8,647 nt of DNA from a virus (taxonomy: Duplodnaviria; Heunggongvirae; Uroviricota; Caudoviricetes): the IMG/VR virus record IMGVR_UViG_2660238215_000009; one strand, written 5' to 3'. Every line of letters begins with the position of its first letter. The stretch's first letter is position 1. Position numbers and translations under genes: made by a program. The notes under the pieces were generated by a model. It saw only the letters and a program-made list of their open reading frames with translations, was not told the DNA's origin and made no database searches. Shown piece after piece: positions 1-8,647 of the stretch.

Positions 1-1152
1 TTGCAGGAAGGCAGTGGACGCACCCAGACTATCCGCATGATTCTGGTTGTCACGAACACCGAAGCCATCACGCTGAAAATCGACCCGTCTGTGGTTCTGG
101 CAACCCGCAAATATGTGGATGATAAAATCTCAGAGCACGAACAGTCACGACGTCACCCGGACGCCTCGCTGACCGTAAAAGGTTTTACTCAGTTAAGCAG
201 TGCAATTAACAGTGAATCAGAAACACTGGCCGCAACACCGAAAGCGGTTAAGGCTGCATATGACCTGGCTAACGGGAAATATACTGCCCAGAACGCCACC
301 ACAACACAAAAAGGGATTGTTCAGCTCAGTAGCGCCACGAACAGCACGTCTGAAACGCTGGCAGCGACACCAAAAGCTGTTAAGGTGGTAATGGATGAAA
401 CGAACAAGAAAGCACCATTAAACAGCCCGGCACTGACCGGAACGCCAACAACACCAACAGCGCCACAGGGGACTAATAATACCCAGATCGCAAGCACAGC
501 TTTCGTTATGGCCGCGATTGCCGCACTTGTAGATTCGTCACCTGATGCACTGAACACGCTGAACGAACTGGCTGCGGCGCTGGGCAATGACCCGAATTTT
601 GCGACCACCATGACTAACGCGCTTGCGGGTAAGCAACCGAAGGATGCCACCCTGACGGCGCTGGCGGAGCTTGCTACATCAGCAGANNNNNNNNNNNNNN
701 NNNNNNNNNNNNNNNNNNNNNNNNNNNNNNNNNNNNNNNNNNNNNNNNNNNNNNNNNNNNNNNNNNNNNNNNNNNNNNNNNNNNNNNNNNNNNNNNNNNN
801 NNNNNNNNNNNNNNNNNNNNNNNNNNNNNNNNNNNNNNNNNNNNNNNNNNNNNNNNNNNNNNNNNNNNNNNNNNNNNNNNNNNNNNNNNNNNNNNNNNNN
901 NNNNNNNNNNNNNGCATACAGGGGTGGTTAACAGGAAGTCATTATCATAATATTCGGTCATGGGACGCGTGGGATAACACGGTACTGGTGCCAAATGACA
1001 AAGGAGGGGATAGTCTGTTGTCGACAGATAACGCCGTCCGGCAAGGTGCAATTAACGGTAGATTTACCAGTCAATACAGAACGGAATCCTCAGTGGGGAA
1101 TGAAACCCGCCCACGCAATATTGCCTTCAATTATATTGTGAGAACCGCATAA
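1..1152 (+). CDS. Tail fibre protein, 5'-partial. Conserved P2 gpH / Mu S / lambda Stf-type N-terminal region, then a masked segment, then a variable tip ending in the shared C-terminal motif
   Basis: Long ORF with tandem ATPKAVK / SSATNSTSETLAATPKAVK-type repeats and ...NTLNELAAALGNDPNFATTMTNALAGKQPKDATLTALA, characteristic of the conserved N-terminal part of myovirus side tail fibres. Ends ...ETRPRNIAFNYIVRTA, the same C-terminal motif as the three minus-strand cassettes. The TTG at position 1 is almost certainly not the real start; the gene begins upstream of the window. Stop TAA at 1150-1152. Confidence 0.85.
   Translation: MQEGSGRTQTIRMILVVTNTEAITLKIDPSVVLATRKYVDDKISEHEQSRRHPDASLTVKGFTQLSSAINSESETLAATPKAVKAAYDLANGKYTAQNATTTQKGIVQLSSATNSTSETLAATPKAVKVVMDETNKKAPLNSPALTGTPTTPTAPQGTNNTQIASTAFVMAAIAALVDSSPDALNTLNELAAALGNDPNFATTMTNALAGKQPKDATLTALAELATSAXXXXXXXXXXXXXXXXXXXXXXXXXXXXXXXXXXXXXXXXXXXXXXXXXXXXXXXXXXXXXXXXXXXXXXXXXXXXXIQGWLTGSHYHNIRSWDAWDNTVLVPNDKGGDSLLSTDNAVRQGAINGRFTSQYRTESSVGNETRPRNIAFNYIVRTA
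687..913. other. Run of 227 N (masked or unresolved sequence) inside the tail-fibre CDS
   Basis: Directly visible. Reading frame is preserved across it (bases 685..915 = 77 codons), and its position and length match the ~220-bp conserved site-plus-collar-domain block seen at the 5' end of each minus-strand cassette. Confidence 0.99.
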
Positions 1153-1763
1153 TGAATAACGCGATATTAAATGATGACCTTATTGCCGTACAGGCAGGAA
1201 ACATCGTCGTTTATAACTATGATGGTGAAACACGGGAATATATTTCCGAATCAACTGAATATCTTGCTGTGGGTGTCGGTATTCCGGCAAATTCCTGTTT
1301 AGATGCCCCGGGCGCACATAAAGCGGGCTATGCTATCCGCCGTTCGGAGAATTTAAGTTCATGGGAGTATGCGCCAGACCATCGTGGTGAAACCGTCTAT
1401 AACACTGACACGGGAAACACCGAAGAAATCACGACGCTGGGTGACTACCCGAAAAATACAACCACTATCGCCCCGTTAACACCATACGATAAATGGGATG
1501 GTGAAAAATGGGTGACAGATACTGAGGCACAACATGGTGCCGCAGTAGAAGCGGCAGAAACCAAGCGCCAGTCACTGGCTGATGCGGCAATGGCTTCCAT
1601 AAGTCTGATTCAGTTGAAGTTGCAGGCCGGGCGGAAGTTGACGCAGGCAGAAACCACCCGGCTTAACGCCGTGCTGGATTATATAGACGCACTGAACGCA
1701 ATGGATATAAACATGGCACCAGATATCAACTGGCCGGAAATACCACTGGCAGCAGCCAGTTGA
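1152..1763 (+). CDS. tfa: Tail fibre assembly chaperone (Tfa; P2 gpG / Mu U / TfaE family)
   Basis: 203-aa ORF with ATG overlapping the fibre stop (TAATG at 1150-1154), implying translational coupling. Motifs typical of Tfa proteins as recalled: ...DHRGETVYNTDTG...KWDGEKWVTDTEA...ETKRQSL...APDINWPEIP. Stop TGA at 1761-1763. Confidence 0.85.
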   Translation: MNNAILNDDLIAVQAGNIVVYNYDGETREYISESTEYLAVGVGIPANSCLDAPGAHKAGYAIRRSENLSSWEYAPDHRGETVYNTDTGNTEEITTLGDYPKNTTTIAPLTPYDKWDGEKWVTDTEAQHGAAVEAAETKRQSLADAAMASISLIQLKLQAGRKLTQAETTRLNAVLDYIDALNAMDINMAPDINWPEIPLAAAS

Positions 1764-1769
1764 ATATAA

Positions 1770-2246
1770 CTAAGCCGCCCTCACGATATAGTTAAATGCA
1801 ATATTGCGGGGGCGGGTTTCACTACCACCTGTGTTACCAATACTTCCTCGTGAATGAAGCGTTGGTGATGGAATCAAACTCCCTCCTGTATTTGTGGCAT
1901 CAAGCCCCCTGCCTTGTGTATATGTTTTTTTGAAAATCGTGGCCAACTCCCATTCATCCTTTGTGTCATATCCATCGTTAGCTACAACAATATGGCGGTG
2001 TTTTTCCAACATCCCGGTTTGAATGCTCAATAAAGCGCGTGCTGCATCAATTCCTCGCCCATCATCCCAGCCACGGATAAATTCACCGCGTAAATCTGGT
2101 AATTTATTGGTGGGGTAGGCCTTTGCCAGTTTGGGATACATTTCAGAAGAAAATGCTGCACCGTTACATTTCAGCCAGCCCGTTGGTGGTGTAGCTGAGG
2201 GCCACGGAACGGGTACACCAACGGGCAACGCAGAGCCTTCCCCCAA
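1770..2246 (-). CDS. Silent alternative tail-fibre tip cassette 1 (tail-collar domain + variable region + shared C-terminal motif); no own promoter or RBS
   Basis: Minus-strand frame encodes (HENVG)LGEGSALPVGVPVPWPSATPPTGWLKCNGAAFSSEMYPKLAKAYPTNKLPDLRGEFIRGWDDGRGIDA (phage tail-collar domain signature PxGWLxCxG...YPxL...LPDLRGxFxRG), then ~85 variable residues, then ...ETRPRNIAFNYIVRAA. The listed start is a TTG inside the crossover site with no Shine-Dalgarno; the frame stays open upstream to 2267. Stop TAG at 1770-1772, 6 nt from the tfa stop. Confidence 0.7.
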   Translation of the reverse strand: MGEGSALPVGVPVPWPSATPPTGWLKCNGAAFSSEMYPKLAKAYPTNKLPDLRGEFIRGWDDGRGIDAARALLSIQTGMLEKHRHIVVANDGYDTKDEWELATIFKKTYTQGRGLDATNTGGSLIPSPTLHSRGSIGNTGGSETRPRNIAFNYIVRAA

Positions 2247-2263
2247 ACCAACGTTTTCATGCG
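2044..2263. repeat. Conserved ~220-bp block, copy 1 of 3 direct repeats (collar-domain coding + crossover site)
   Basis: By-eye alignment with 2558..2777 and 2998..3216 shows long identical stretches (e.g. cccatcatcccagcc, acatttcagaagaaaatg, gcaccgttacatttcagcc, ggaacgggcacaccaacgggca, aaaccaacgttttc). Identity is estimated at roughly 85-90%, not computed. Confidence 0.85.
2238..2263 (-). other. Candidate 26-bp invertase crossover site S1 (TTCCCCCAAACC-AA-CGTTTTCATGCG)
   Basis: Matches the hix/gix/cix-type architecture as recalled (TTCnnnnAAACC - 2-bp core - GGTTTnnnnnAA): strong left half, AA core at 2250-2251, weaker right half. Sits at the cassette 1 / cassette 2 junction and contains the cassette 2 stop codon (TGA, 2257-2259). 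Confidence 0.55.
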
Positions 2264-2760
2264 GCTCTTACGATGTAATTAAATGCAACGTTGCGAGGGC
2301 GAGTTTCTGTACCTACATTTCCACTAATTTCACCAAACCGTTTTACATTACGAGAGCTAATGGCTCGTAGTGAGGAAGGCACCTTTAAACCGGGTTCGTC
2401 TGTTTTAACTATTCCCCCGTCCCCGTATGTAGCCAGTATTCCAGGGTTTACTCCTTCCCGTGCACTTCCCGCGGCAAGTCCATCCCCGGTCCATAATTCC
2501 ATATAGTGTGCATGATCCAAAATTGTGTGTGGCTGCCAATTAAGCAAAGCGCGGCCAGCATCCACCCCGCGCCCATCATCCCAGCCGCGAATAAATTCGC
2601 CCCGTAAATCCGGTAATTTATTGGCGGGGTAGGCCTTTGCCAGATTGGGGTACATTTCAGAAGAAAATGCTGCACCGTTACATTTCAGCCACCCCGCTGG
2701 CGGCGTGGCTGAAGGCCATGGAACGGGCACACCAACGGGCAGTGCAGAGCCTTCCCCCAA
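2257..2760 (-). CDS. Silent alternative tail-fibre tip cassette 2 (tail-collar domain + variable region + shared C-terminal motif)
   Basis: Encodes (HENVG)LGEGSALPVGVPVPWPSATPPAGWLKCNGAAFSSEMYPNLAKAYPANKLPDLRGEFIRGWDDGRGVDA, then a distinct ~100-aa variable region, then ...TETRPRNVAFNYIVRAA. Start position is a TTG within site S2; no RBS. Confidence 0.7.
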   Translation of the reverse strand: MGEGSALPVGVPVPWPSATPPAGWLKCNGAAFSSEMYPNLAKAYPANKLPDLRGEFIRGWDDGRGVDAGRALLNWQPHTILDHAHYMELWTGDGLAAGSAREGVNPGILATYGDGGIVKTDEPGLKVPSSLRAISSRNVKRFGEISGNVGTETRPRNVAFNYIVRAA

Positions 2761-2777
2761 ACCAACGTTTTCATGCT
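2558..2777. repeat. Conserved ~220-bp block, copy 2 of 3
   Basis: See copy 1; same internal order, ending in crossover site S2. Confidence 0.85.
2752..2777 (-). other. Candidate 26-bp invertase crossover site S2 (TTCCCCCAAACC-AA-CGTTTTCATGCT)
   Basis: Differs from S1 only at its last base; core AA at 2764-2765; contains the cassette 3 stop codon (TGA, 2771-2773). Confidence 0.55.
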
Positions 2778-3256
2778 GCCCTTACGATGTAATTAAACGC
2801 AATATTACGAGGACGAATGGTTACATAATTAACCCCATCACCTCGTGAAGGCCCTGCAAATGAAAAACGGGAAAAGCCTGGTTGGTTAGAAACAATTTGG
2901 TCATAGTTATTGATTGAATGACCAGACCCAATGTCGAAATTACCTCCGTAATGAGAAAAACTTGTACCATCCTGCCCAGAAAGCAGGGTACGTCCCGCAT
3001 CAATCCCGCGCCCATCATCCCAGCCACGGATAAATTCACCGCGTAAATCCGGTAATTTATTGGTGGGATAAGCCCTTGCCAGTCTGGGATACATTTCAGA
3101 AGAAAATGTTGCACCGTTACATTTCAGCCAGCCCGTTGGTGGTGTTGCTAAGGGCCACGGAACGGGCACACCAACGGGCAGTGCAGAACCTTCTCCTAAA
3201 CCAACGTTTTCGTTTTTATCCCTACCTATACCAACTATGTATTTTTCACGAAACAA
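2771..3256 (-). CDS. Silent alternative tail-fibre tip cassette 3 (tail-collar domain + Gly/Ser-rich variable region + shared C-terminal motif)
   Basis: Encodes ...NENVGLGEGSALPVGVPVPWPLATPPTGWLKCNGATFSSEMYPRLARAYPTNKLPDLRGEFIRGWDDGRGIDA, a variable region, then ...VTIRPRNIAFNYIVRAA. The listed 5' end (TTG at 3254-3256) has no Shine-Dalgarno; sequence upstream of site S3 is probably not translated. Confidence 0.65.
   Translation of the reverse strand: MFREKYIVGIGRDKNENVGLGEGSALPVGVPVPWPLATPPTGWLKCNGATFSSEMYPRLARAYPTNKLPDLRGEFIRGWDDGRGIDAGRTLLSGQDGTSFSHYGGNFDIGSGHSINNYDQIVSNQPGFSRFSFAGPSRGDGVNYVTIRPRNIAFNYIVRAA
2998..3216. repeat. Conserved ~220-bp block, copy 3 of 3
   Basis: See copy 1; the most diverged copy (e.g. 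ttctcctaaacc vs ttcccccaaacc in the site). Confidence 0.85.
3191..3216 (-). other. Candidate 26-bp invertase crossover site S3 (TTCTCCTAAACC-AA-CGTTTTCGTTTT), closest to the invertase gene
   Basis: Same architecture as S1 and S2, core AA at 3203-3204. Lies 55 bp upstream of the invertase ATG, analogous to gixR/cixR next to gin/cin. Confidence 0.5.
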
Positions 3257-3270: not shown

Positions 3271-3870
3271 ATGCAAATTGGCTATATTCGTGTGTCAACA
3301 AATGACCAGAACACGGATTTACAACGCAATGCACTGAACTGCGCAGGATGTGAACTGATTTTTGAAGATAAAATCAGCGGAACGAAATCAGCCAGACCGG
3401 GATTGAAAAAACTGCTCAGAACGCTATCAGAAGGAGATACGCTGGTTGTCTGGAAGCTGGACAGACTGGGCAGAAGTATGAAACACCTGATCACGCTTAT
3501 TGAGGAATTGCGGGAAAAAGGTGTTAATTTCCGTAGTCTGACGGACAGCATTGACACATCAACACCCATGGGGCGTTTCTTTTTTCACGTCATGGGGGCT
3601 TTAGCCGAAATGGAACGTGAATTAATTGTAGAGCGTACACTGGCCGGGCTGGCAGCAGCACGCGAACAAGGACGCATTGGCGGACGTCGCCCGAAGTTGA
3701 CAAAAGAACAACACGAGCAAATAGCGAGGCTGATTAAAAACGGTCATGACAGGAAACAACTGGCGATCATTTACGACATCGGCATATCGACGATTTATCG
3801 TTATCACCCTGTAGGCGATATACAGGCTGAAGAAACAACCAGGCAGACTCAGGAAAATGAAAACCGCTAA
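3271..3870 (+). CDS. pin: Serine-recombinase DNA invertase (Pin/Gin/Hin/Cin family)
   Basis: 199 aa: MQIGYIRVSTNDQNTDLQRNALNCAGCELIFEDKISG...LVVWKLDRLGRSMKHLITLIEELREKGVNFRSLTDSIDTSTPMGRFFFHVMGALAEMERELIVERT...GRIGGRRPKLT..., near-identical in motifs to enterobacterial Pin/Gin invertases as recalled. Catalytic Ser9 is codon 3295-3297; C-terminal HTH region present. True start is the ATG at 3271 (RBS, family N-terminus), not the longer listed ORF from 3076. Confidence 0.92.
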   Translation: MQIGYIRVSTNDQNTDLQRNALNCAGCELIFEDKISGTKSARPGLKKLLRTLSEGDTLVVWKLDRLGRSMKHLITLIEELREKGVNFRSLTDSIDTSTPMGRFFFHVMGALAEMERELIVERTLAGLAAAREQGRIGGRRPKLTKEQHEQIARLIKNGHDRKQLAIIYDIGISTIYRYHPVGDIQAEETTRQTQENENR

Positions 3871-3889
3871 TCTGACCATTAGCGGTTTT
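3860..3889. terminator. Candidate bidirectional stem-loop between the convergent invertase and gpU-like genes
   Basis: Perfect 11-bp inverted repeat aaaaccgctaa (3860-3870) / ttagcggtttt (3879-3889) with an 8-nt loop. Overlaps the invertase stop codon; T-rich on both flanks. No free-energy calculation was done. Confidence 0.4.
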
Positions 3890-3896
3890 GCGTTAA

Positions 3897-4391
3897 TCAA
3901 AACAACCCTTTAACGGAGCTGGCCGCGCTGTTAAGGGATGATGTGACCTTATCTTTGAAGCCGGACAGCATATCACTGAACGATGAGGATTGCAGGCGCT
4001 CCCGCAAATCCTCATCACAGCGTTCAAGGGTCAGTGAAAATTCTATCTTTTTCGCCTTACCGTAGCGATCAAACTCGGAACGGGTCGTATTCGTTCCGGT
4101 CAGGACATACATGCCGTAAATCTGCCCGACGCCATCAATCAGAGGCCAGGGTCGTCCTGTATACGCCTGCGTGGTCAGCAGCGACAGCGACACTTCGCCA
4201 CCTGTAATTTCAGGATAAAGCACACCAGAAAGAACGATGCGATCATCACCTGCACCGATATACTGCCAGCTTGCTGAACGGTTAACGCGTTCATTTTTCA
4301 CATGCCGCCAGCTTTTGTTTTGCTGTAACTGCTGATGCGGCAGCGTGCGCAGCTCAAAAACAAACATGCCGTAGATCATCATCATGGCCAT
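3897..4391 (-). CDS. U: P2 gpU-like tail protein
   Basis: 164-aa ORF MAMMMIYGMFVFELRTLPHQQLQQNKSWRH...GVLYPEITGG..., resembling the P2 gpU family as recalled (MMM...FVF...Q..SWRH). Directly follows the tape-measure gene. The true start may be the ATG at 4385 (SD GGAG, 8-nt spacer) rather than 4391. Confidence 0.75.
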   Translation of the reverse strand: MAMMMIYGMFVFELRTLPHQQLQQNKSWRHVKNERVNRSASWQYIGAGDDRIVLSGVLYPEITGGEVSLSLLTTQAYTGRPWPLIDGVGQIYGMYVLTGTNTTRSEFDRYGKAKKIEFSLTLERCDEDLRERLQSSSFSDMLSGFKDKVTSSLNSAASSVKGLF

Positions 4392-4397
4392 GACTCC

Positions 4398-7238
4398 TCA
4401 ATCTTTATCGTAAAAACTGCCACGCCCGGCACGGGCGCGCCGTTCCATTTCTGCCCTGACCATTTCACCGACCAGTTTCGCCAGTTCGCGGGGATTCTGC
4501 GTAACAACGTTATGCAGATGAACATGAATTTCACCGCCAAATCCGGAGGCAACAGGCTCCCGGTTACGGGAAGTTACAGGAACTGATGCCACTGGAGATC
4601 GTATGGCCTCCGCCACCGGGCGGGAGCTGGCCGCAACAACAGGGACCAGCGCCGGAGGCAGCGGAGCCGGGACCACGGGTGTGATATTAATTGCGGGGGG
4701 CTTACTGACCTGCGCAATCTTCCGCTCCTGCCACTCCCCACGAACGGCAAGTGCGCGGGGCAGGTTCTTAAAGACAATATCGCCGGGGCCAATGCGTTTT
4801 TTCGTCTCCTCAACCAGCTTACCTGTGTTATCAGCAATTTTGCTGAGTCTGCGCAGCGTACCGGTATTGCTGTCTGTGAGCGGTTTATTGTCTTTGGGGT
4901 TATCACCTCCGGTACCATTGCCATTTTCCACAGGCTTCGGCGGATTGATTTTCGCCAGGTCCCCCTGAAGCAAGGCAACCTTGTCCTGAAGAATGGCCGC
5001 ACGCTGTGCGTCTTCGATTTTCTTGCGCGCCCTTTCCGCTTCATCCGGAAGGACGCCAAGTTTTTCAAGTATCCACGCCAGCGTATCCAGCAGCATTTTT
5101 GCAGGTGTCAGAACAAGCTGTAACGCACCGCCAAGAACGTTACCGAATATCTCGCCAGCACTGGTACATTTATCCAGCGTTTCCTTGCTGGACTCCATCG
5201 GTGACAGCAGCGATTTAAACCAGTTAAACACCTGGCTGATCCCGCTCCCGATTGCGTCAAAAACAGGACCAAACCGTTCAAAGGTTTCGCGCAACGGGGT
5301 CAGCCTTTCCATAATCCCGCTGAACACCCCGGCAAAAAATGCCCTGATGGGATCCCAGTATTTCCAGATAAGAACGGCAGCTCCGGCAAGCGCAGCCACG
5401 ATAAGACCAACCGGACTGAACAACGCCCCGATAGCGCCTCCCAGTAAAGAAACGGAACCCGTCACCATTCCCCATAGTGCTGGCAGAACCCTGACAGCAT
5501 TCATTGATCCGGTCAGGAGGGAAAAACCAAGACGCAGTTTTGCCAGCGGGCCAGCAAGCACACCAATAGCCAGCGACAACGAGCCAACCGTTGCAGTCAT
5601 TGCCAGCAGTGCACCGCCTGCAATCAGTAGCTGGCGCGTCAGTGCGGGATGGGCCTGCGCCAGCGCCGTCACCTTTGATACCACACGCGTGAGCCACTGC
5701 GTGACAGAACGCAGCGGACCGTCAATCAGATCTGCAATGCGGATGCGCAACCCTTCCCATGCACTGCTGAGTGATTTCAAATCGCCGTCAAGGTTGTTGG
5801 CCATAACCTTTGCCGTGCGTTCAGCCTCACCGCGCGCGCCTTCAAGTTCTTTTCTCAGTTTGGGTAAGGAGCCGTCACCTGCCGCATCAACGAGGGCCAT
5901 AAATGATGTGAAAGCCTCTTCTCCGGCAATGTCCTTAAAGAACGATACCCGGTCAACTTCCCCGTATTTGCGGGTAGCTTTATAAAGGTCAGCCAGCACA
6001 TCCTCCATCGGGCGCATTTTGCCCCCGGCATCCGAGACAGACACGCCAAGCTCTTTCAGCGCCTCTGCTGCCGCCTTTGGCGGTGATGCCAGACGAGCCA
6101 GGCTGGCACGCATTGCCGTACCAGCATCACTCCCCCTGATACCCATATTCGCCAGCACGCCCGCCATCGCTGCGGCCTGCTCCAGCGATATTCCCAGCTT
6201 ACCCGCCACCGGACCTGCATATTTCATGGTTTCACCCAGTGCGCGAAGGTCAGTGTTGGTACGGGTAAACGCTGCGGTGAGTGTGTCGCCGACCCGGTCC
6301 ATCTGGTCAGCAGAAAGACCGAACTGCGTCAGAATATTTGAGCCAATATCCGCCGTCTCACCGAGGTCCATACCGCCAGCCGTTGCCATGCTCAGTACGC
6401 CAGGGAGCGCAGCCTGAATGGCCTGTGGTGTGAAGCCAGCCATTGCAAGAAATGCCTGCCCACTGGCGGCATCGCCTGCGGTGAACTGCGTTTCAGAGCC
6501 AAGTTTTAACGCCTGCTCACGCAGCGCCTTAAACTGCGGGCTGTTTTTGTCGATTCGCGTCAGTGCCTGAACGCGGGACATCTCTTTCCCGAACCCGATC
6601 GCAGGCTGCAAAAAACGCCCGGCAGCATAGCCGCCCGCCGCTGCCGCACCAATTGCCAGCGCACCACCTGTTTTCAGTTTTCCCGCTGTTTCCTGCGCGC
6701 GCGAATACCGCTCACGCGCCTGCGTTACACGCGCAAGCGCCTGCCGTTCGCGTTCAAGCTGGTTGTTGTACTGTTCGGTGCGTCTGATGGCCTGCTGGAT
6801 GGTGTTATCGCTGCCTGTCAGGGAAATGCCGTGGCGTTTCAGCTCTCCGCCAATCTCCCGCATTTTCTGAATTTCCCGTGTGCGCGATTCATTCAGGCGT
6901 TCAAGCCGGGTGCTTAACTGCTGCATCAGCTTTTGTTGTTTTTCGCTGAGCACTGTACCCGTGCGTTGTAACTGATTAAGGGCGTTAAGCTGGCGTCGTG
7001 CTTTCACGATACCCGCATCCGCTTTACTGACAGCGTCGCGGGCGCGCTCAAATGAACGCGCCTGACGCTCGAGATTTTTGATCGCCCCCTGCGTTCGCTG
7101 GATGGAGTCACCAAACTGCCCCATCAGGCGGCGGGCGTTTTCGGCAGGCCGGGTCAGCCTGTCAACGGCGCTGAAAGCGACCCGGATATCAAGAGTCTTC
7201 ATTGTCTGCATTCCCGCTGCGAAGTGCCGCCCGCTCAC
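4398..7238 (-). CDS. T: Tail tape measure protein (P2 gpT-like)
   Basis: 946-aa ORF, Ala/Gly/Leu-rich with long hydrophobic helical stretches and coiled-coil-like Q/R/E-rich N-terminal region; located downstream of the E/E' frameshift pair as in all long-tailed phages. Start uncertain: GTG at 7238, or ATG at 7211 or 7202; overlaps the end of E'. Confidence 0.85.
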   Translation of the reverse strand: MSGRHFAAGMQTMKTLDIRVAFSAVDRLTRPAENARRLMGQFGDSIQRTQGAIKNLERQARSFERARDAVSKADAGIVKARRQLNALNQLQRTGTVLSEKQQKLMQQLSTRLERLNESRTREIQKMREIGGELKRHGISLTGSDNTIQQAIRRTEQYNNQLERERQALARVTQARERYSRAQETAGKLKTGGALAIGAAAAGGYAAGRFLQPAIGFGKEMSRVQALTRIDKNSPQFKALREQALKLGSETQFTAGDAASGQAFLAMAGFTPQAIQAALPGVLSMATAGGMDLGETADIGSNILTQFGLSADQMDRVGDTLTAAFTRTNTDLRALGETMKYAGPVAGKLGISLEQAAAMAGVLANMGIRGSDAGTAMRASLARLASPPKAAAEALKELGVSVSDAGGKMRPMEDVLADLYKATRKYGEVDRVSFFKDIAGEEAFTSFMALVDAAGDGSLPKLRKELEGARGEAERTAKVMANNLDGDLKSLSSAWEGLRIRIADLIDGPLRSVTQWLTRVVSKVTALAQAHPALTRQLLIAGGALLAMTATVGSLSLAIGVLAGPLAKLRLGFSLLTGSMNAVRVLPALWGMVTGSVSLLGGAIGALFSPVGLIVAALAGAAVLIWKYWDPIRAFFAGVFSGIMERLTPLRETFERFGPVFDAIGSGISQVFNWFKSLLSPMESSKETLDKCTSAGEIFGNVLGGALQLVLTPAKMLLDTLAWILEKLGVLPDEAERARKKIEDAQRAAILQDKVALLQGDLAKINPPKPVENGNGTGGDNPKDNKPLTDSNTGTLRRLSKIADNTGKLVEETKKRIGPGDIVFKNLPRALAVRGEWQERKIAQVSKPPAINITPVVPAPLPPALVPVVAASSRPVAEAIRSPVASVPVTSRNREPVASGFGGEIHVHLHNVVTQNPRELAKLVGEMVRAEMERRARAGRGSFYDKD

Positions 7239-7425
7239 GCCAGCTAACCACTTCGCCGGGCGTCATCATGAAGATTTCGGCGGGCGACCAGTTAAAAATA
7301 ACGGCAATATCTGCCACAAAGTCTTCTATGTGCTCAAAGCACACAACCGTGATCAGGCTTCCGTCGCCTGTTCGTTCTTCCCGCCAGAGTCCGCACCGCT
7401 CAAAAAATTTACGGCAACCACACAT
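7189..7425 (-). CDS. E': E' extension frame of the tail assembly chaperone; expressed only as an E+E' fusion by -1 frameshifting
   Basis: ORF in the -1 frame relative to E, overlapping its 3' end and the tape-measure start. After the slip the sequence reads ...NFL-ERCGLWREERTGDGSLITVV..., which matches this ORF. Stop at 7189-7191. Confidence 0.7.
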   Translation of the reverse strand: MCGCRKFFERCGLWREERTGDGSLITVVCFEHIEDFVADIAVIFNWSPAEIFMMTPGEVVSWRERAALRSGNADNEDS

Positions 7426-7718
7426 AACTGAATAAAGTCACGGGATGCCATTTTTTTGATCGTCACTTCATCCAGTCGCGGTGATGTCACGCGTGACAGC
7501 AGCGTAAACATGGATTCCGCTTTCAGATTCAGCACATCAGACAGCGACAAATCTCGCAGAGATCCAGCCTGCTCAATAGCCCCGGTGATCTCCACATACG
7601 TGATTTTTTCGCCGCCTCGCTCAATTGGTTGGGTAAGTTTTACGCCACGCTCACTGGTTTCTTTCACAGTGTCAGCAACTACCGTGTTTTCGGTATCGAT
7701 GTTTTTCGTCTCTTTCAT
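7353..7718 (-). CDS. E: Tail assembly chaperone (P2 gpE-like)
   Basis: 121-aa acidic ORF immediately upstream of the tape-measure gene with a strong RBS (AAGGAG, 7-nt spacer) before the ATG at 7716-7718; contains the slippery site near its 3' end. Confidence 0.8.
   Translation of the reverse strand: MKETKNIDTENTVVADTVKETSERGVKLTQPIERGGEKITYVEITGAIEQAGSLRDLSLSDVLNLKAESMFTLLSRVTSPRLDEVTIKKMASRDFIQLCVVAVNFLSGADSGGKNEQATEA
7401..7407 (-). other. Programmed -1 ribosomal frameshift slippery heptamer T_TTT_TTG (minus strand)
   Basis: Minus-strand sequence AAT TTT TTG AGC (N-F-L-S in the E frame). An X_XXY_YYZ heptamer at the point where the E and E' frames overlap, the same type of site described for the P2 E/E+E' pair. 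Confidence 0.75.
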
Positions 7719-7772
7719 CAGGAAACTCCTTTCAGTCAGAGGCGACGCACTGCGCCGCCTGCATATTACTTA

Positions 7773-8285
7773 TCAGCCAAGCCCAAGCGCGGAACGGATG
7801 CGATCGGGCACAATGTCCTTGCCGTCCTTCCGGTAAATGAAGTTCAGCAGGTCAATCTCCCACAGCGGGCGATCGTTAACGCTCAGCTTGTAGTAGGTGT
7901 TTTTAATGGCGTAAGAGTGTGATGTGGCTTCGCCCTGTTTGGCTTCCCCCATATCAATTTCCGTCACACGTCCGCGCATTTCGACTTCATACAGGTCGCT
8001 TTCTGCATCGGTGTAGTATTCACCCGCAAAACGCAGCAGCGTGCCGTCAATCGTGCCGCCATACTTAAGGAACAGCTCACGAACTGCGCCCCCCATGACA
8101 AAGCTCGCATCAAGCGCGGAGTCGTCCAGACCGAGATCAATACTTACCGCACCCATCATGCCACCACCCCAGTAGCTGTCGGTTTTGCGCGTCAGCTTAG
8201 GCAGAGTGACGGACGTCACCTTACCCACTTCGTTTTCACCATCCACAAACAGCGTAAAAAAGCGAAGATGTTTTGGCACAGCCAT
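7773..8285 (-). CDS. FII: Major tail tube protein (P2 gpFII-like)
   Basis: 170-aa ORF MAVPKHLRFFTLFVDGENEVGKVTSVTLPKLTRKTDSYWGGGMMGAV..., resembling contractile-tail tube proteins. ATG at 8283-8285 overlaps the sheath stop (TGATG). Confidence 0.85.
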   Translation of the reverse strand: MAVPKHLRFFTLFVDGENEVGKVTSVTLPKLTRKTDSYWGGGMMGAVSIDLGLDDSALDASFVMGGAVRELFLKYGGTIDGTLLRFAGEYYTDAESDLYEVEMRGRVTEIDMGEAKQGEATSHSYAIKNTYYKLSVNDRPLWEIDLLNFIYRKDGKDIVPDRIRSALGLG

Positions 8286-8647
8286 CAGGCACCTCCCAGC
8301 ACCGCAAATGCGGGTTCAAAGTATTCATCAGTAAACGTCTGGTAAAGCTCCATATCTTCCAGCGGGGGAACAGGCGTATATTTGTAGCGAATACGCACAC
8401 GCCCCTGACGTAAATCCGTGGTGCTGTTATCCACCACGTCATACCAGCACTCCGCGCCAATCAGTTTCCCGGCAGTAACCAGTGAATCCAGTTTTGCCCT
8501 GATGGCACTGATAACATCCTTCACGTTCGCAGGCGTCAGTGGACTGTCGATGGTTTCAAACTGCGCTTCCGCAATTGAATCAGCCAACACCTGTGCGGTT
8601 CGGGTATACACCTCAAAGATGTAGGCGTTCGTTTCCGGTGTGCGGTT
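8285..8647 (-). CDS. FI: Tail sheath protein (P2 gpFI-like), C-terminal part; 5' end lies beyond the window
   Basis: Frame is open from the window edge (8647) to TGA at 8285-8287; C-terminal sequence ...RVRIRYKYTPVPPLEDMELYQTFTDEYFEPAFAVLGGA. Position immediately upstream of the tube gene fits sheath-tube order. Confidence 0.75.
   Translation of the reverse strand, partial: NRTPETNAYIFEVYTRTAQVLADSIAEAQFETIDSPLTPANVKDVISAIRAKLDSLVTAGKLIGAECWYDVVDNSTTDLRQGRVRIRYKYTPVPPLEDMELYQTFTDEYFEPAFAVLGGA

Follow-up and report, generated by a model that had tools for sequence, protein, structure and literature searches.

Probable invertase crossover sites among the tail-fibre cassettes of a P2-like prophage, a further case of long-known tip swapping by DNA inversion

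The inversion mechanism by which tail-fibre tips are exchanged has been known since the work on Mu, P1, e14 and p15B. P1 and Mu each recombine two sites and carry Sv-U and Sv'-U' pairs; the 12-2-12 site is located in the S tail-fibre gene, at the junction of its constant and variable parts, and its strong half codes for G-L-x-E. The P1 sites are cixL (CAATCCTAAACC TT GGTTTAAGAGAA) and cixR (TTATCCAATACC TT GGTTTAAGAGAA), and the boundary of the Mu G segment reads TTATCCAAAACC TC GGTTTACAGGAA. In P1, an enhancer is annotated at the 5' end of the invertase gene, and the TAA that ends cin falls in the weak half of cixL, so that a weak half containing a stop codon has a precedent. In the cryptic prophage e14 of E. 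coli K-12, the Pin invertase serves the P segment; there are two sites (CTCTCGAAAACC TT GGTTTGGGAGAA and TTTTCATAAACG TT GGTTTGGGAGAA), a single segment that can invert, and a pair of assembly genes, tfaP and tfaE. The Min system of p15B reportedly combines one invertase and more than two 26-bp sites with a constant 5' fibre part and several 3' cassettes (Sandmeier et al. 1990-1994, cited in PMC4134206). In the R64 shufflon, multiple inversions determine which of several C-terminal segments is attached to one gene; it employs the tyrosine recombinase Rci and 19-bp sfx sites and acts on a pilus adhesin (Komano 1999, cited in PMC4272514).

The mechanism was re-described for E. coli prophages in 2014 (PMC4272514, PMC4134206). 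In prophage Phi2 of EC958, two 26-bp sites, TCCTCAATTACCTT followed by GGTTTAGGAGAA and GAGAGATAAACGTT followed by GGTTTGGGGGAA (Forde et al. 2014, PMC4134206 Table 3), lie within a 227-bp imperfect inverted repeat. In the P2-like prophage of strain E2348/69 (E. coli O127:H6), two overlapping inversions with three alternative C-termini were shown experimentally, and clonal cultures contained four coexisting variants, confirmed by PCR (Goldberg et al. 2014, PMC4272514); the 215-bp inverted repeats are described there, while the 26-bp sites and the stop codons embedded in them are left undiscussed.

The window analyzed here, a stretch of 8,647 nucleotides from the IMG/VR record IMGVR_UViG_2660238215_000009 (Caudoviricetes), carries essentially the same element as E2348/69, with 96-99% identity at the DNA level; its relatives among viral contigs, in alignments of at least 400 bp, are 91-99% identical. 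Cassettes A, B and D are common to the window and E2348/69, as are the Sc-side, internal and terminal sites. The window has one extra cassette, of type C, which raises the number of alternative tips to four and, presumably, that of inversions from two to three.

The left edge of the window cuts an H-like tail-fibre gene, whose constant 5' part (Sc, 1..686, plus strand; Pfam Phage_fiber_2 and Phage_tail_fib) is 98-99% identical to fibre genes of E. coli P2-like prophages. Beyond a run of N's at 687..913 lies the 3' part of cassette A (914..1152, plus strand, within ORF 1..1152; type A of the relatives), which is the currently fused C-terminus of the fibre and ends in ...NYIVRTA. Its stop codon is overlapped by the start of the only tail-fibre assembly (chaperone) gene (tfa, 1152..1763, plus strand; Pfam Caudo_TAP, 5.8e-33). 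Three silent cassettes follow on the minus strand, each an ORF with a Collar domain that is open from the strong half of a site to the stop: cassette B (1770..2249; 159 codons from the strong-half GGT to TAG, with neither a promoter nor a start codon of its own), cassette C (2257..2763; 168 codons) and cassette D (2771..3202; 143 codons). A promoter scan of the coding strand found none upstream of any cassette start, which, as weak negative evidence, fits silent modules; the single match of the scan, at 2539-2512 on the minus strand, is inside cassette C, and one match is fewer than expected by chance. The array is followed by a gene for a serine DNA invertase of 199 amino acids with catalytic Ser9 (3271..3870, plus strand; Pfam Resolvase, 2.2e-51, and HTH_7, 1.4e-12), and a terminator-like hairpin with a 12-bp stem (3860..3889) is found between the convergent invertase and gpU genes.

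The invertase matches the Gin structures 4m6f and 3uj3 over residues 1-185 (E 1.8e-91) and conserves the motif YIRVSTNDQ. Gin and Cin share 73% of their residues with it, PinE 81.5%, and the enzyme of a 96.7-kb P1-like plasmid contig (L040) 95%. The window encodes no recombinase other than this serine invertase, and its sites are 26 bp long and gix/cix-like; membership in the R64/Rci type was therefore rejected, the likeness to that shufflon being in outcome only.

Three 26-mers had been proposed as crossover sites by a first-pass annotation, with coordinates and sequences that turn out to be exact. They are internal site 1 (2238..2263, minus strand; TTCCCCCAAACCAACGTTTTCATGCG, on the coding strand CGCATGAAAACG TT GGTTTGGGGGAA, core 2250..2251), internal site 2 (2752..2777, minus strand; TTCCCCCAAACCAACGTTTTCATGCT, coding strand AGCATGAAAACG TT GGTTTGGGGGAA, core 2764..2765) and the terminal site (3191..3216, minus strand; TTCTCCTAAACCAACGTTTTCGTTTT, coding strand AAAACGAAAACG TT GGTTTAGGAGAA, core 3203..3204). 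All three point the same way, and in each a TT core (AA on the plus strand) separates a weak half of 12 bp from a strong half of 12 bp, GGTTTnnnnGAA. The half-site pattern of the gix/cix type, also proposed at first pass, is borne out by the 12-2-12 register and the strong half, which match P1 cix, Mu gix and e14. The register and the TT core are those of P1, and e14 has the same core; the core of Mu is TC, unlike that of the window. The strong half of e14 is one position away from sites 1 and 2, and one away from the terminal site.

As in P1 and Mu, the sites lie in a tail-fibre gene at the junction of constant and variable parts, with a strong half coding for G-L-x-E. Those systems differ from this locus in their two sites and paired fibre and assembly genes, and e14 likewise differs, because the window has at least four sites (counting the partner expected under the N's), stacked cassettes and a single assembly gene. 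The EC958 prophage resembles the window in that Phage_fibre_2 repeats are fused to a Collar-domain cassette, and its weak halves belong to the same classes that were recovered here, but it is a two-site system with mirror-image pairs of cassette and assembly gene. A parallel in architecture is Min of p15B and the P1-like phage-plasmids, where multiple sites are likewise served by one invertase. The window has one invertase and more than two sites, namely the three visible ones and the masked partner. P1-like contigs such as L040 contain up to nine sites, with the stop codon placed in the weak half in the same way. The replicon differs, as Min belongs to a P1-like plasmid and the window to a P2-like chromosomal prophage.

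We consider it highly probable (roughly 0.93) that a multiple-inversion system of the Gin/Cin/Pin/Min family, located in the tail module of a P2-like prophage, uses the 26-mers as its crossover sites. The pattern TTCYCCYAAACCAACGTTTTC occurs three times in the window and not once in 200 shuffles, but this statistic is not specific to the sites, because the 26-mers sit in duplicated coding sequence. They are contained in a 271-nt direct repeat present in three copies (2032-2302, 2546-2816 and 2985-3255; 80-88% identical), in which the conserved collar-coding 5' part of one cassette is joined to the conserved 3' end of the next. Therefore, similarity among the sites proves nothing by itself. The 26-mers could be just the best-conserved stretch of the duplication, the start of the collar plus the C-terminus of a cassette, with rearrangement due to RecA-dependent recombination across repeats of about 210-270 bp; the repeats of E2348/69 have been described simply as 215-bp inverted repeats with 92% homology (PMC4272514). 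Homologous exchange does take place at such loci, as chimeric collars show: in one relative (L001), cassette A carries the 5' 135-190 nt of cassette F. Collars are mosaic between cassette types, and therefore the locus must be reshaped through homologous recombination or gene conversion as well. The same mosaicism makes a polymorphism of the strong half (TTCTCCT/TTCCCCC) move between cassettes; as a marker of cassette D it was rejected, since elsewhere it travels with cassettes A or B.

Related loci indicate where strands are exchanged, and junctions of natural isomers had been named beforehand as the observation that could refute the proposal. In E2348/69 and in SCU-101 they are found at the sites and their cores. 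Two sequences of E2348/69, NC_011601.1 and CP059840.2, are inversion isomers with the whole segment flipped, and their junction intervals (4160-4196 and 6125-6161 of locus L089) each start or end exactly at the core dinucleotide. Taken alone, this pair leaves the crossover anywhere within 37 bp of perfect identity, which could be used by homologous recombination too; yet both intervals abut the core at the outermost edge of the repeat, even though identical stretches of greater length (41 and 63 bp) are available deeper inside it. The published inversion ends, obtained from read pairs and PCR, are 1891695, 1892127 and 1893703 (PMC4272514 Table S1), compared to core positions of 1891695/6, 1892134/5 and 1893695/6 determined here, so that the end at 1891695 coincides with a core. 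Site 1 of the window is identical in 25 of 26 positions to the internal site of E2348/69, a mapped inversion end, and site 2 is identical to it throughout (26/26; NC_011601.1 1892122..1892147).

The sharpest localization comes from SCU-101, where an inversion has recombined a true site, AGCATGAAAACG TT GGTTTGGGGGAA, with a quasi-site, CATCACCAACGC TT CATTCACGAGGA, located inside cassette B, and the two reciprocal joints are both preserved. There is no flanking homology at these joints. Since the parents differ on both sides of TT, the exchange is confined to the dinucleotide and cannot be attributed to homology. Strand exchange at the central dinucleotide is in this way documented in relatives, rather than in the genome of the window itself.

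In all other loci that were compared, the transition between flank sequence and cassette sequence likewise falls at the core. Across about 100 related loci, the core is TT in 203 of 205 sites; there are 2-9 sites per locus, and cassettes are permuted between strands. Cassettes of each type from A to F have been found joined to Sc-side, internal and terminal weak halves, which themselves keep their positions, and cassettes of each type have also been found fused in frame to the constant part (...LDYL/GLGEG...), so that relatives do join one constant 5' part to alternative 3' fibre parts. Recombination between homologous repeats would be expected to collapse tandem direct repeats, yet arrays of up to nine sites persist. 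A Gin-family invertase is always adjacent to the array, and deletion of gin locks an analogous three-isoform tail-fibre 'shufflon' in an Enterobacter phage (PMC13418256). Homology-driven exchange is therefore a very improbable account of the sites.

The other claims made at first pass concern the coding content of the sites. Each site was said to overlap the stop codon of the upstream cassette, so that recombination site, frame junction and terminator are compressed into 26 bp. This stands for the two internal sites, where the TGA codons of cassettes C and D are found, on the minus strand, at 2257..2259 and 2771..2773, and fails for the terminal one. In the related loci, an upstream stop occupies positions 5-7 of the weak half in 70 of 71 internal sites (TGA in 44, TAG in 16, TAA in 10). 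The terminal weak half, AAAACGAAAACG, next to the invertase, forms the fixed end of the system and has neither a stop nor an upstream cassette; together with its flank, CGTTTTCGTYTTTATCCCTACC, it adjoins the invertase in every relative, whatever cassette is attached to it.

From core to core, a module begins with the strong half and the collar, continues through the variable region to the conserved C-terminus, and closes with the stop codon and the weak half. With modules packed in this manner, internal weak halves contain the last alanine codon or codons and the stop of the upstream cassette. This stop is offset by one base from the frame of the downstream cassette, which is also closed by an in-frame TAA six codons upstream.

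The conserved half had been thought to encode N-V-G-L-G-E at the start of the collar domain. In fact, this half (GGTTTGGGGGAA or GGTTTAGGAGAA) codes for no more than G-L-G-E; the codon for N and the opening base of the V codon belong to the weak half, and the TT core supplies the other two bases of that V codon. The expressed fusion reads ...L-D-Y-L/G-L-G-E, and therefore E-N-V is never translated. The Pfam Collar match begins about eight codons past the site.

For any inversion, the sites visible in the window would need a partner in the opposite orientation. Such a site, inverted with respect to the other three, is present at the Sc/cassette junction in every relative that is readable there, where the sequence is TTCTTGATTACC TT GGTTTGGGGGAA followed by the collar. 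In the window, the equivalent stretch is masked, and the obligatory partner (site0) would have to lie within the N-run, 687..913, together with the collar-coding start of cassette A. Accordingly, one may ask if the locus is a frozen relic that has lost the partner site, or a part of the fibre gene, under the N's, with the three cassettes surviving as silent, non-switching pseudogene fragments. The masked stretch is 105 nt shorter than its counterpart (227 N versus 332 nt in relatives), which makes a deletion affecting site0 possible, and decayed arrangements with chimeric or truncated cassettes are seen in some relatives (L001 and SCU-101). Against this, the reading frame is kept across the N-run (ORF 1..1152); the invertase ORF is intact and identical in 197 of 199 residues to the enzyme of E2348/69, where the locus has been shown to invert; the three visible sites all retain the TT core and the strong half and are identical to active sites in 24-26 of 26 positions; and none of the silent cassettes is interrupted. 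We regard decay as very improbable.

If the 26-mers are indeed crossover sites, the mechanism is likely to be that of the Gin/Cin/Pin/Min family, from which its binding and cutting steps are inferred. Dimers of the invertase would bind two inverted sites, the masked one at the end of the constant part and any of the three on the opposite strand, cut both at the 2-bp core, rotate and religate. The stop-free site beside the invertase is the fixed end of the system. Each inversion would join the constant part (...VLDYL) in frame to another promoterless C-terminal cassette (GLGEGSALPVG...), and the receptor-binding tip would change with the cassette.

By homology, inversion may also be expected to need Fis and a recombinational enhancer lying within the invertase gene itself, at its 5' end. 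A putative Fis-dependent enhancer at 3289..3360 (plus strand), proposed on homology to the P1 cin enhancer only, aligns without gaps to the annotated P1 element, with 57 of 72 positions identical (79%, versus 67% gene-wide). The synonymous-site test for an embedded enhancer gives a weak and non-significant signal (0.32 in codons 7-30 versus 0.39, p = 0.056 overall), with lower synonymous divergence in codons 1-12 and 25-36.

In this lineage, many stacked cassettes share one assembly-chaperone gene, tfa, which inverts along with cassettes A and B. The orientation of tfa is opposed to the fibre operon in roughly 90% of E2348/69 cells and in around half of the assembled genomes. Compared with canonical P2, the tail operon FI-FII-E-T-U is inverted, and so converges on the invertible region. 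Truncation of gpD by a large inversion in the lineage was considered and rejected, as E2348/69 has an intact D frame and the shorter annotation reflects the choice of start codon. A speculative and rather doubtful proposal is that transcription of tfa starts from the late operon that happens to face it. A related and equally speculative one is that the fixed position of the weak-half stop, together with the conserved ...NIAFNYIVRAA C-terminus, has been selected as an 'adapter'. If true, the adapter would allow new cassettes to be stacked free of spacers while remaining compatible with one chaperone.

The evidence supports genuine crossover sites that belong to an already known process, the swapping of fibre tips by DNA flipping, found in 2014 in a near-identical element as well (PMC4272514). 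The additions are modest: the placement of a stop codon at positions 5-7 of the weak half of internal sites, a rule quantified over about 100 loci, and a naturally occurring recombinant at a quasi-site, by which strand exchange is narrowed down to the TT core. Annotators should be cautious with cassettes labelled as separate 'phage tail proteins', which are silent 3' modules. Tail-fibre switching sets the host range of the phage, and is thereby relevant both to prophage annotation and to phage engineering.

The crossover-site system of the window is already known. The 26-bp tail-fibre sites, their consensus and the multi-site Min-type systems go back to work of 1985-1994 (cited in PMC4134206, which also tabulates the same site type in the EC958 prophage Phi2); a near-identical locus of E. 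coli E2348/69 has been experimentally shown to be a four-state switch (PMC4272514), and a recent study dissected a fibre 'shufflon' with three isoforms that depends on gin (PMC13418256).

The window is a P2-like prophage tail module, and the region is present in E. coli chromosomes at 96-98% identity. The + strand carries the 3' two-thirds of the tail-fibre gene (1..1152, broken by an N-run at 687..913) and a single-copy tail-fibre assembly gene, tfa (1152..1763); these are followed on the - strand by three ORFs, each starting with a phage tail Collar domain (1770..2246, 2257..2760 and 2771..3256), by a resolvase/invertase gene of 199 aa (3271..3870, + strand), and by the tail genes U, T, E, FII and FI (3897..8647, - strand). 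A hairpin with a 12-bp stem and flanking A and T runs (3860..3889), probably a bidirectional terminator, separates the convergent invertase and gpU genes. The order FI-FII-E-T-U is reversed relative to canonical P2 and converges on the invertible region, whereas in KC618326.1, a canonical P2-like phage with an invertase, the invertase is followed co-directionally by FI and there are two assembly genes; gpD of E2348/69 is intact and divergent from FI. The sole tfa lies 6 nt from convergent cassette B (1770..2246), and in loci L010-L033 the block A-tfa-B' inverts as one unit. Among invertase-anchored loci, tfa and the fibre gene are co-oriented in 8 and opposed in 12; the opposed state prevails in about 90% of cells in E2348/69 cultures (PMC4272514).

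The three 26-mers proposed as crossover sites by the first-pass annotation (2238..2263, 2752..2777 and 3191..3216) were recovered with exactly the same positions and sequences. A 21-mer common to them occurs three times, versus none in shuffles, but this statistic is not specific to the sites, because the 26-mers are embedded in a 271-nt three-copy direct repeat composed of conserved sequence from two adjacent cassettes, the collar-coding start of one and the 3' end of the other. Each site was thought to overlap the stop codon of the upstream cassette. This holds for 2238..2263 and 2752..2777, the weak halves of which contain ...GCA TGA, the last alanine and the stop of that cassette (TGA at + strand coordinates 2257..2259 and 2771..2773); translation of the - strand shows that 3191..3216 has neither a stop nor an upstream cassette. 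The stop register is one base off from the frame of the downstream cassette, and that frame is also closed by an in-frame TAA six codons upstream. At the terminal position the frame is open for 22 codons further upstream (MFREKYIVGIGRDKNENV..., - strand, 3256 down to 3217), starting at a TTG (3254..3256, - strand) without obvious ribosome-binding site, and annotation pipelines call the cassette so extended a separate 'phage tail protein'. The conserved half had been read as encoding N-V-G-L-G-E; the strong half, GGTTTGGGGGAA or GGTTTAGGAGAA, in fact encodes G-L-G-E, while N and V fall on the weak half and TT core.

Reference sites, drawn from annotated records, were compared as weak half, core and strong half: P1 cixL (CAATCCTAAACC, TT, GGTTTAAGAGAA), P1 cixR (TTATCCAATACC, TT, GGTTTAAGAGAA), the ends of the Mu G segment (TTATCCAAAACC, TC, GGTTTACAGGAA), and e14 on the fibre-gene side (CTCTCGAAAACC, TT, GGTTTGGGAGAA) and invertase side (TTTTCATAAACG, TT, GGTTTGGGAGAA). 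The proposed gix/cix-type pattern is borne out, as all align in the same register with invariant GGTTT....GAA; the TT core is common to the window, P1 cix and e14, and only the Mu core differs. The invertase matches Gin crystal-structure sequences with E about 1e-91; its identity is 73% with Gin and Cin, 81.5% with PinE, and 95% with the enzyme of a P1-like plasmid contig. Its C-terminus has an acidic/polar extension of 6-15 residues (…QAEETTRQTQENENR), for a length of 199 aa versus 193 in Gin, 186 in Cin and 184 in PinE. Cleavage chemistry would be that established for Gin and Hin. By sequence homology, the system would also require Fis and an enhancer: identity to the enhancer annotated in P1 is 79% over the corresponding stretch, compared to 67% gene-wide, and a synonymous-site test for an enhancer in the invertase gene gave p = 0.056.

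The three visible sites all have the same orientation, and the invertase requires a further site facing the opposite way. Relatives have it where the constant part of the fibre gene meets the cassette being expressed, as TTCTTGATTACC TT GGTTTGGGGGAA, encoding ...L-D-Y-L|G-L-G-E; this position coincides in the window with the N-run 687..913, which should conceal this inverted partner together with the expressed cassette's collar. The run is 227 nt long, versus 332 nt (35 codons more) in the close relatives L003 and L090, and the reading frame is kept at either length.

Relatives at 97-99% identity have the same cassette types A-F, named after their variable regions, in varying order and strand. 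The Sc-side weak half, next to the constant fibre part, never moves, the weak half of the terminal site, together with its flank, always stays beside the invertase, and every cassette type is seen joined to all three weak-half classes. Two assemblies of strain E2348/69, NC_011601.1 (Sc.D B> <tfa <A) and CP059840.2 (Sc.A tfa> <B <D), are inversion isomers with colinear flanks; the segment aligns inverted with one mismatch, at the base adjoining the right-hand core. Natural-isomer junctions had been set beforehand as a test of the sites, and the outer bound of both junction intervals (4160-4196 and 6125-6161 in compared locus L089) is exactly the core dinucleotide. In clonal E2348/69 cultures, two inversions that overlap one another and four variants existing side by side were detected and confirmed by PCR (Goldberg et al., PMC4272514); the inversion ends reported in NC_011601.1 are 1891695, 1892127 and 1893703 (PMC4272514 Table S1), and we locate the cores at 1891695/6, 1892134/5 and 1893695/6. 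Window site 2752..2777 matches the E2348/69 internal site at 26/26 positions, and the two invertases differ at 2/199 residues; we infer that recombination is active in the window's own genome as well.

The repeats do also undergo homologous recombination. In strain C325 (L001, 3774..4235), cassette A bears 135-190 nt from the beginning of cassette F, which is itself absent (compare L002), indicating that such recombination within the collar repeat caused a deletion or gene conversion, and collar polymorphisms are generally mosaic across cassette types. Such recombination, however, explains neither why junctions consistently fall at the core nor how as many as nine direct repeats in tandem have survived, and it cannot account for the joints in strain SCU-101 (L005). 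There, an in-frame hybrid fibre with two collar domains has cassette B cut at ...PSPTL and continued by GLGEG... of cassette A. At the hybrid joint the sequence is CATCACCAACGC TT GGTTTGGGGGAA. Its reciprocal, AGCATGAAAACG TT CATTCACGAGGA, is located on the opposite strand at a distance of about 1.2 kb, and the 3' end that cassette B lacks comes after it. Both joints (2675..2700 and 3843..3868) are at the TT core. This inversion took place between a quasi-site within cassette B and a true site, and since their flanking bases differ on both sides of TT, the exchange fell within the dinucleotide.

We surveyed about 100 loci (80 IMG/VR loci retrieved via the invertase, and E. coli genomes). The TT core is present in 203/205 sites, and in 159/167 by a search anchored on the collar, which made no assumption about the site. 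The stop of the upstream cassette is at weak-half positions 5-7 in 70 of 71 internal sites, as TGA (44), TAG (16) or TAA (10); thus, its position is fixed and its identity free, which is consistent with tolerance at these half-site positions. In phage P1 (L094), cixL (8213..8238) has a weak half containing the TAA stop of cin, an annotated precedent for a stop codon in this part of a site. Embedding of the stop is genuine and regular in these loci, and amounts to a detail of how a known design is packed.
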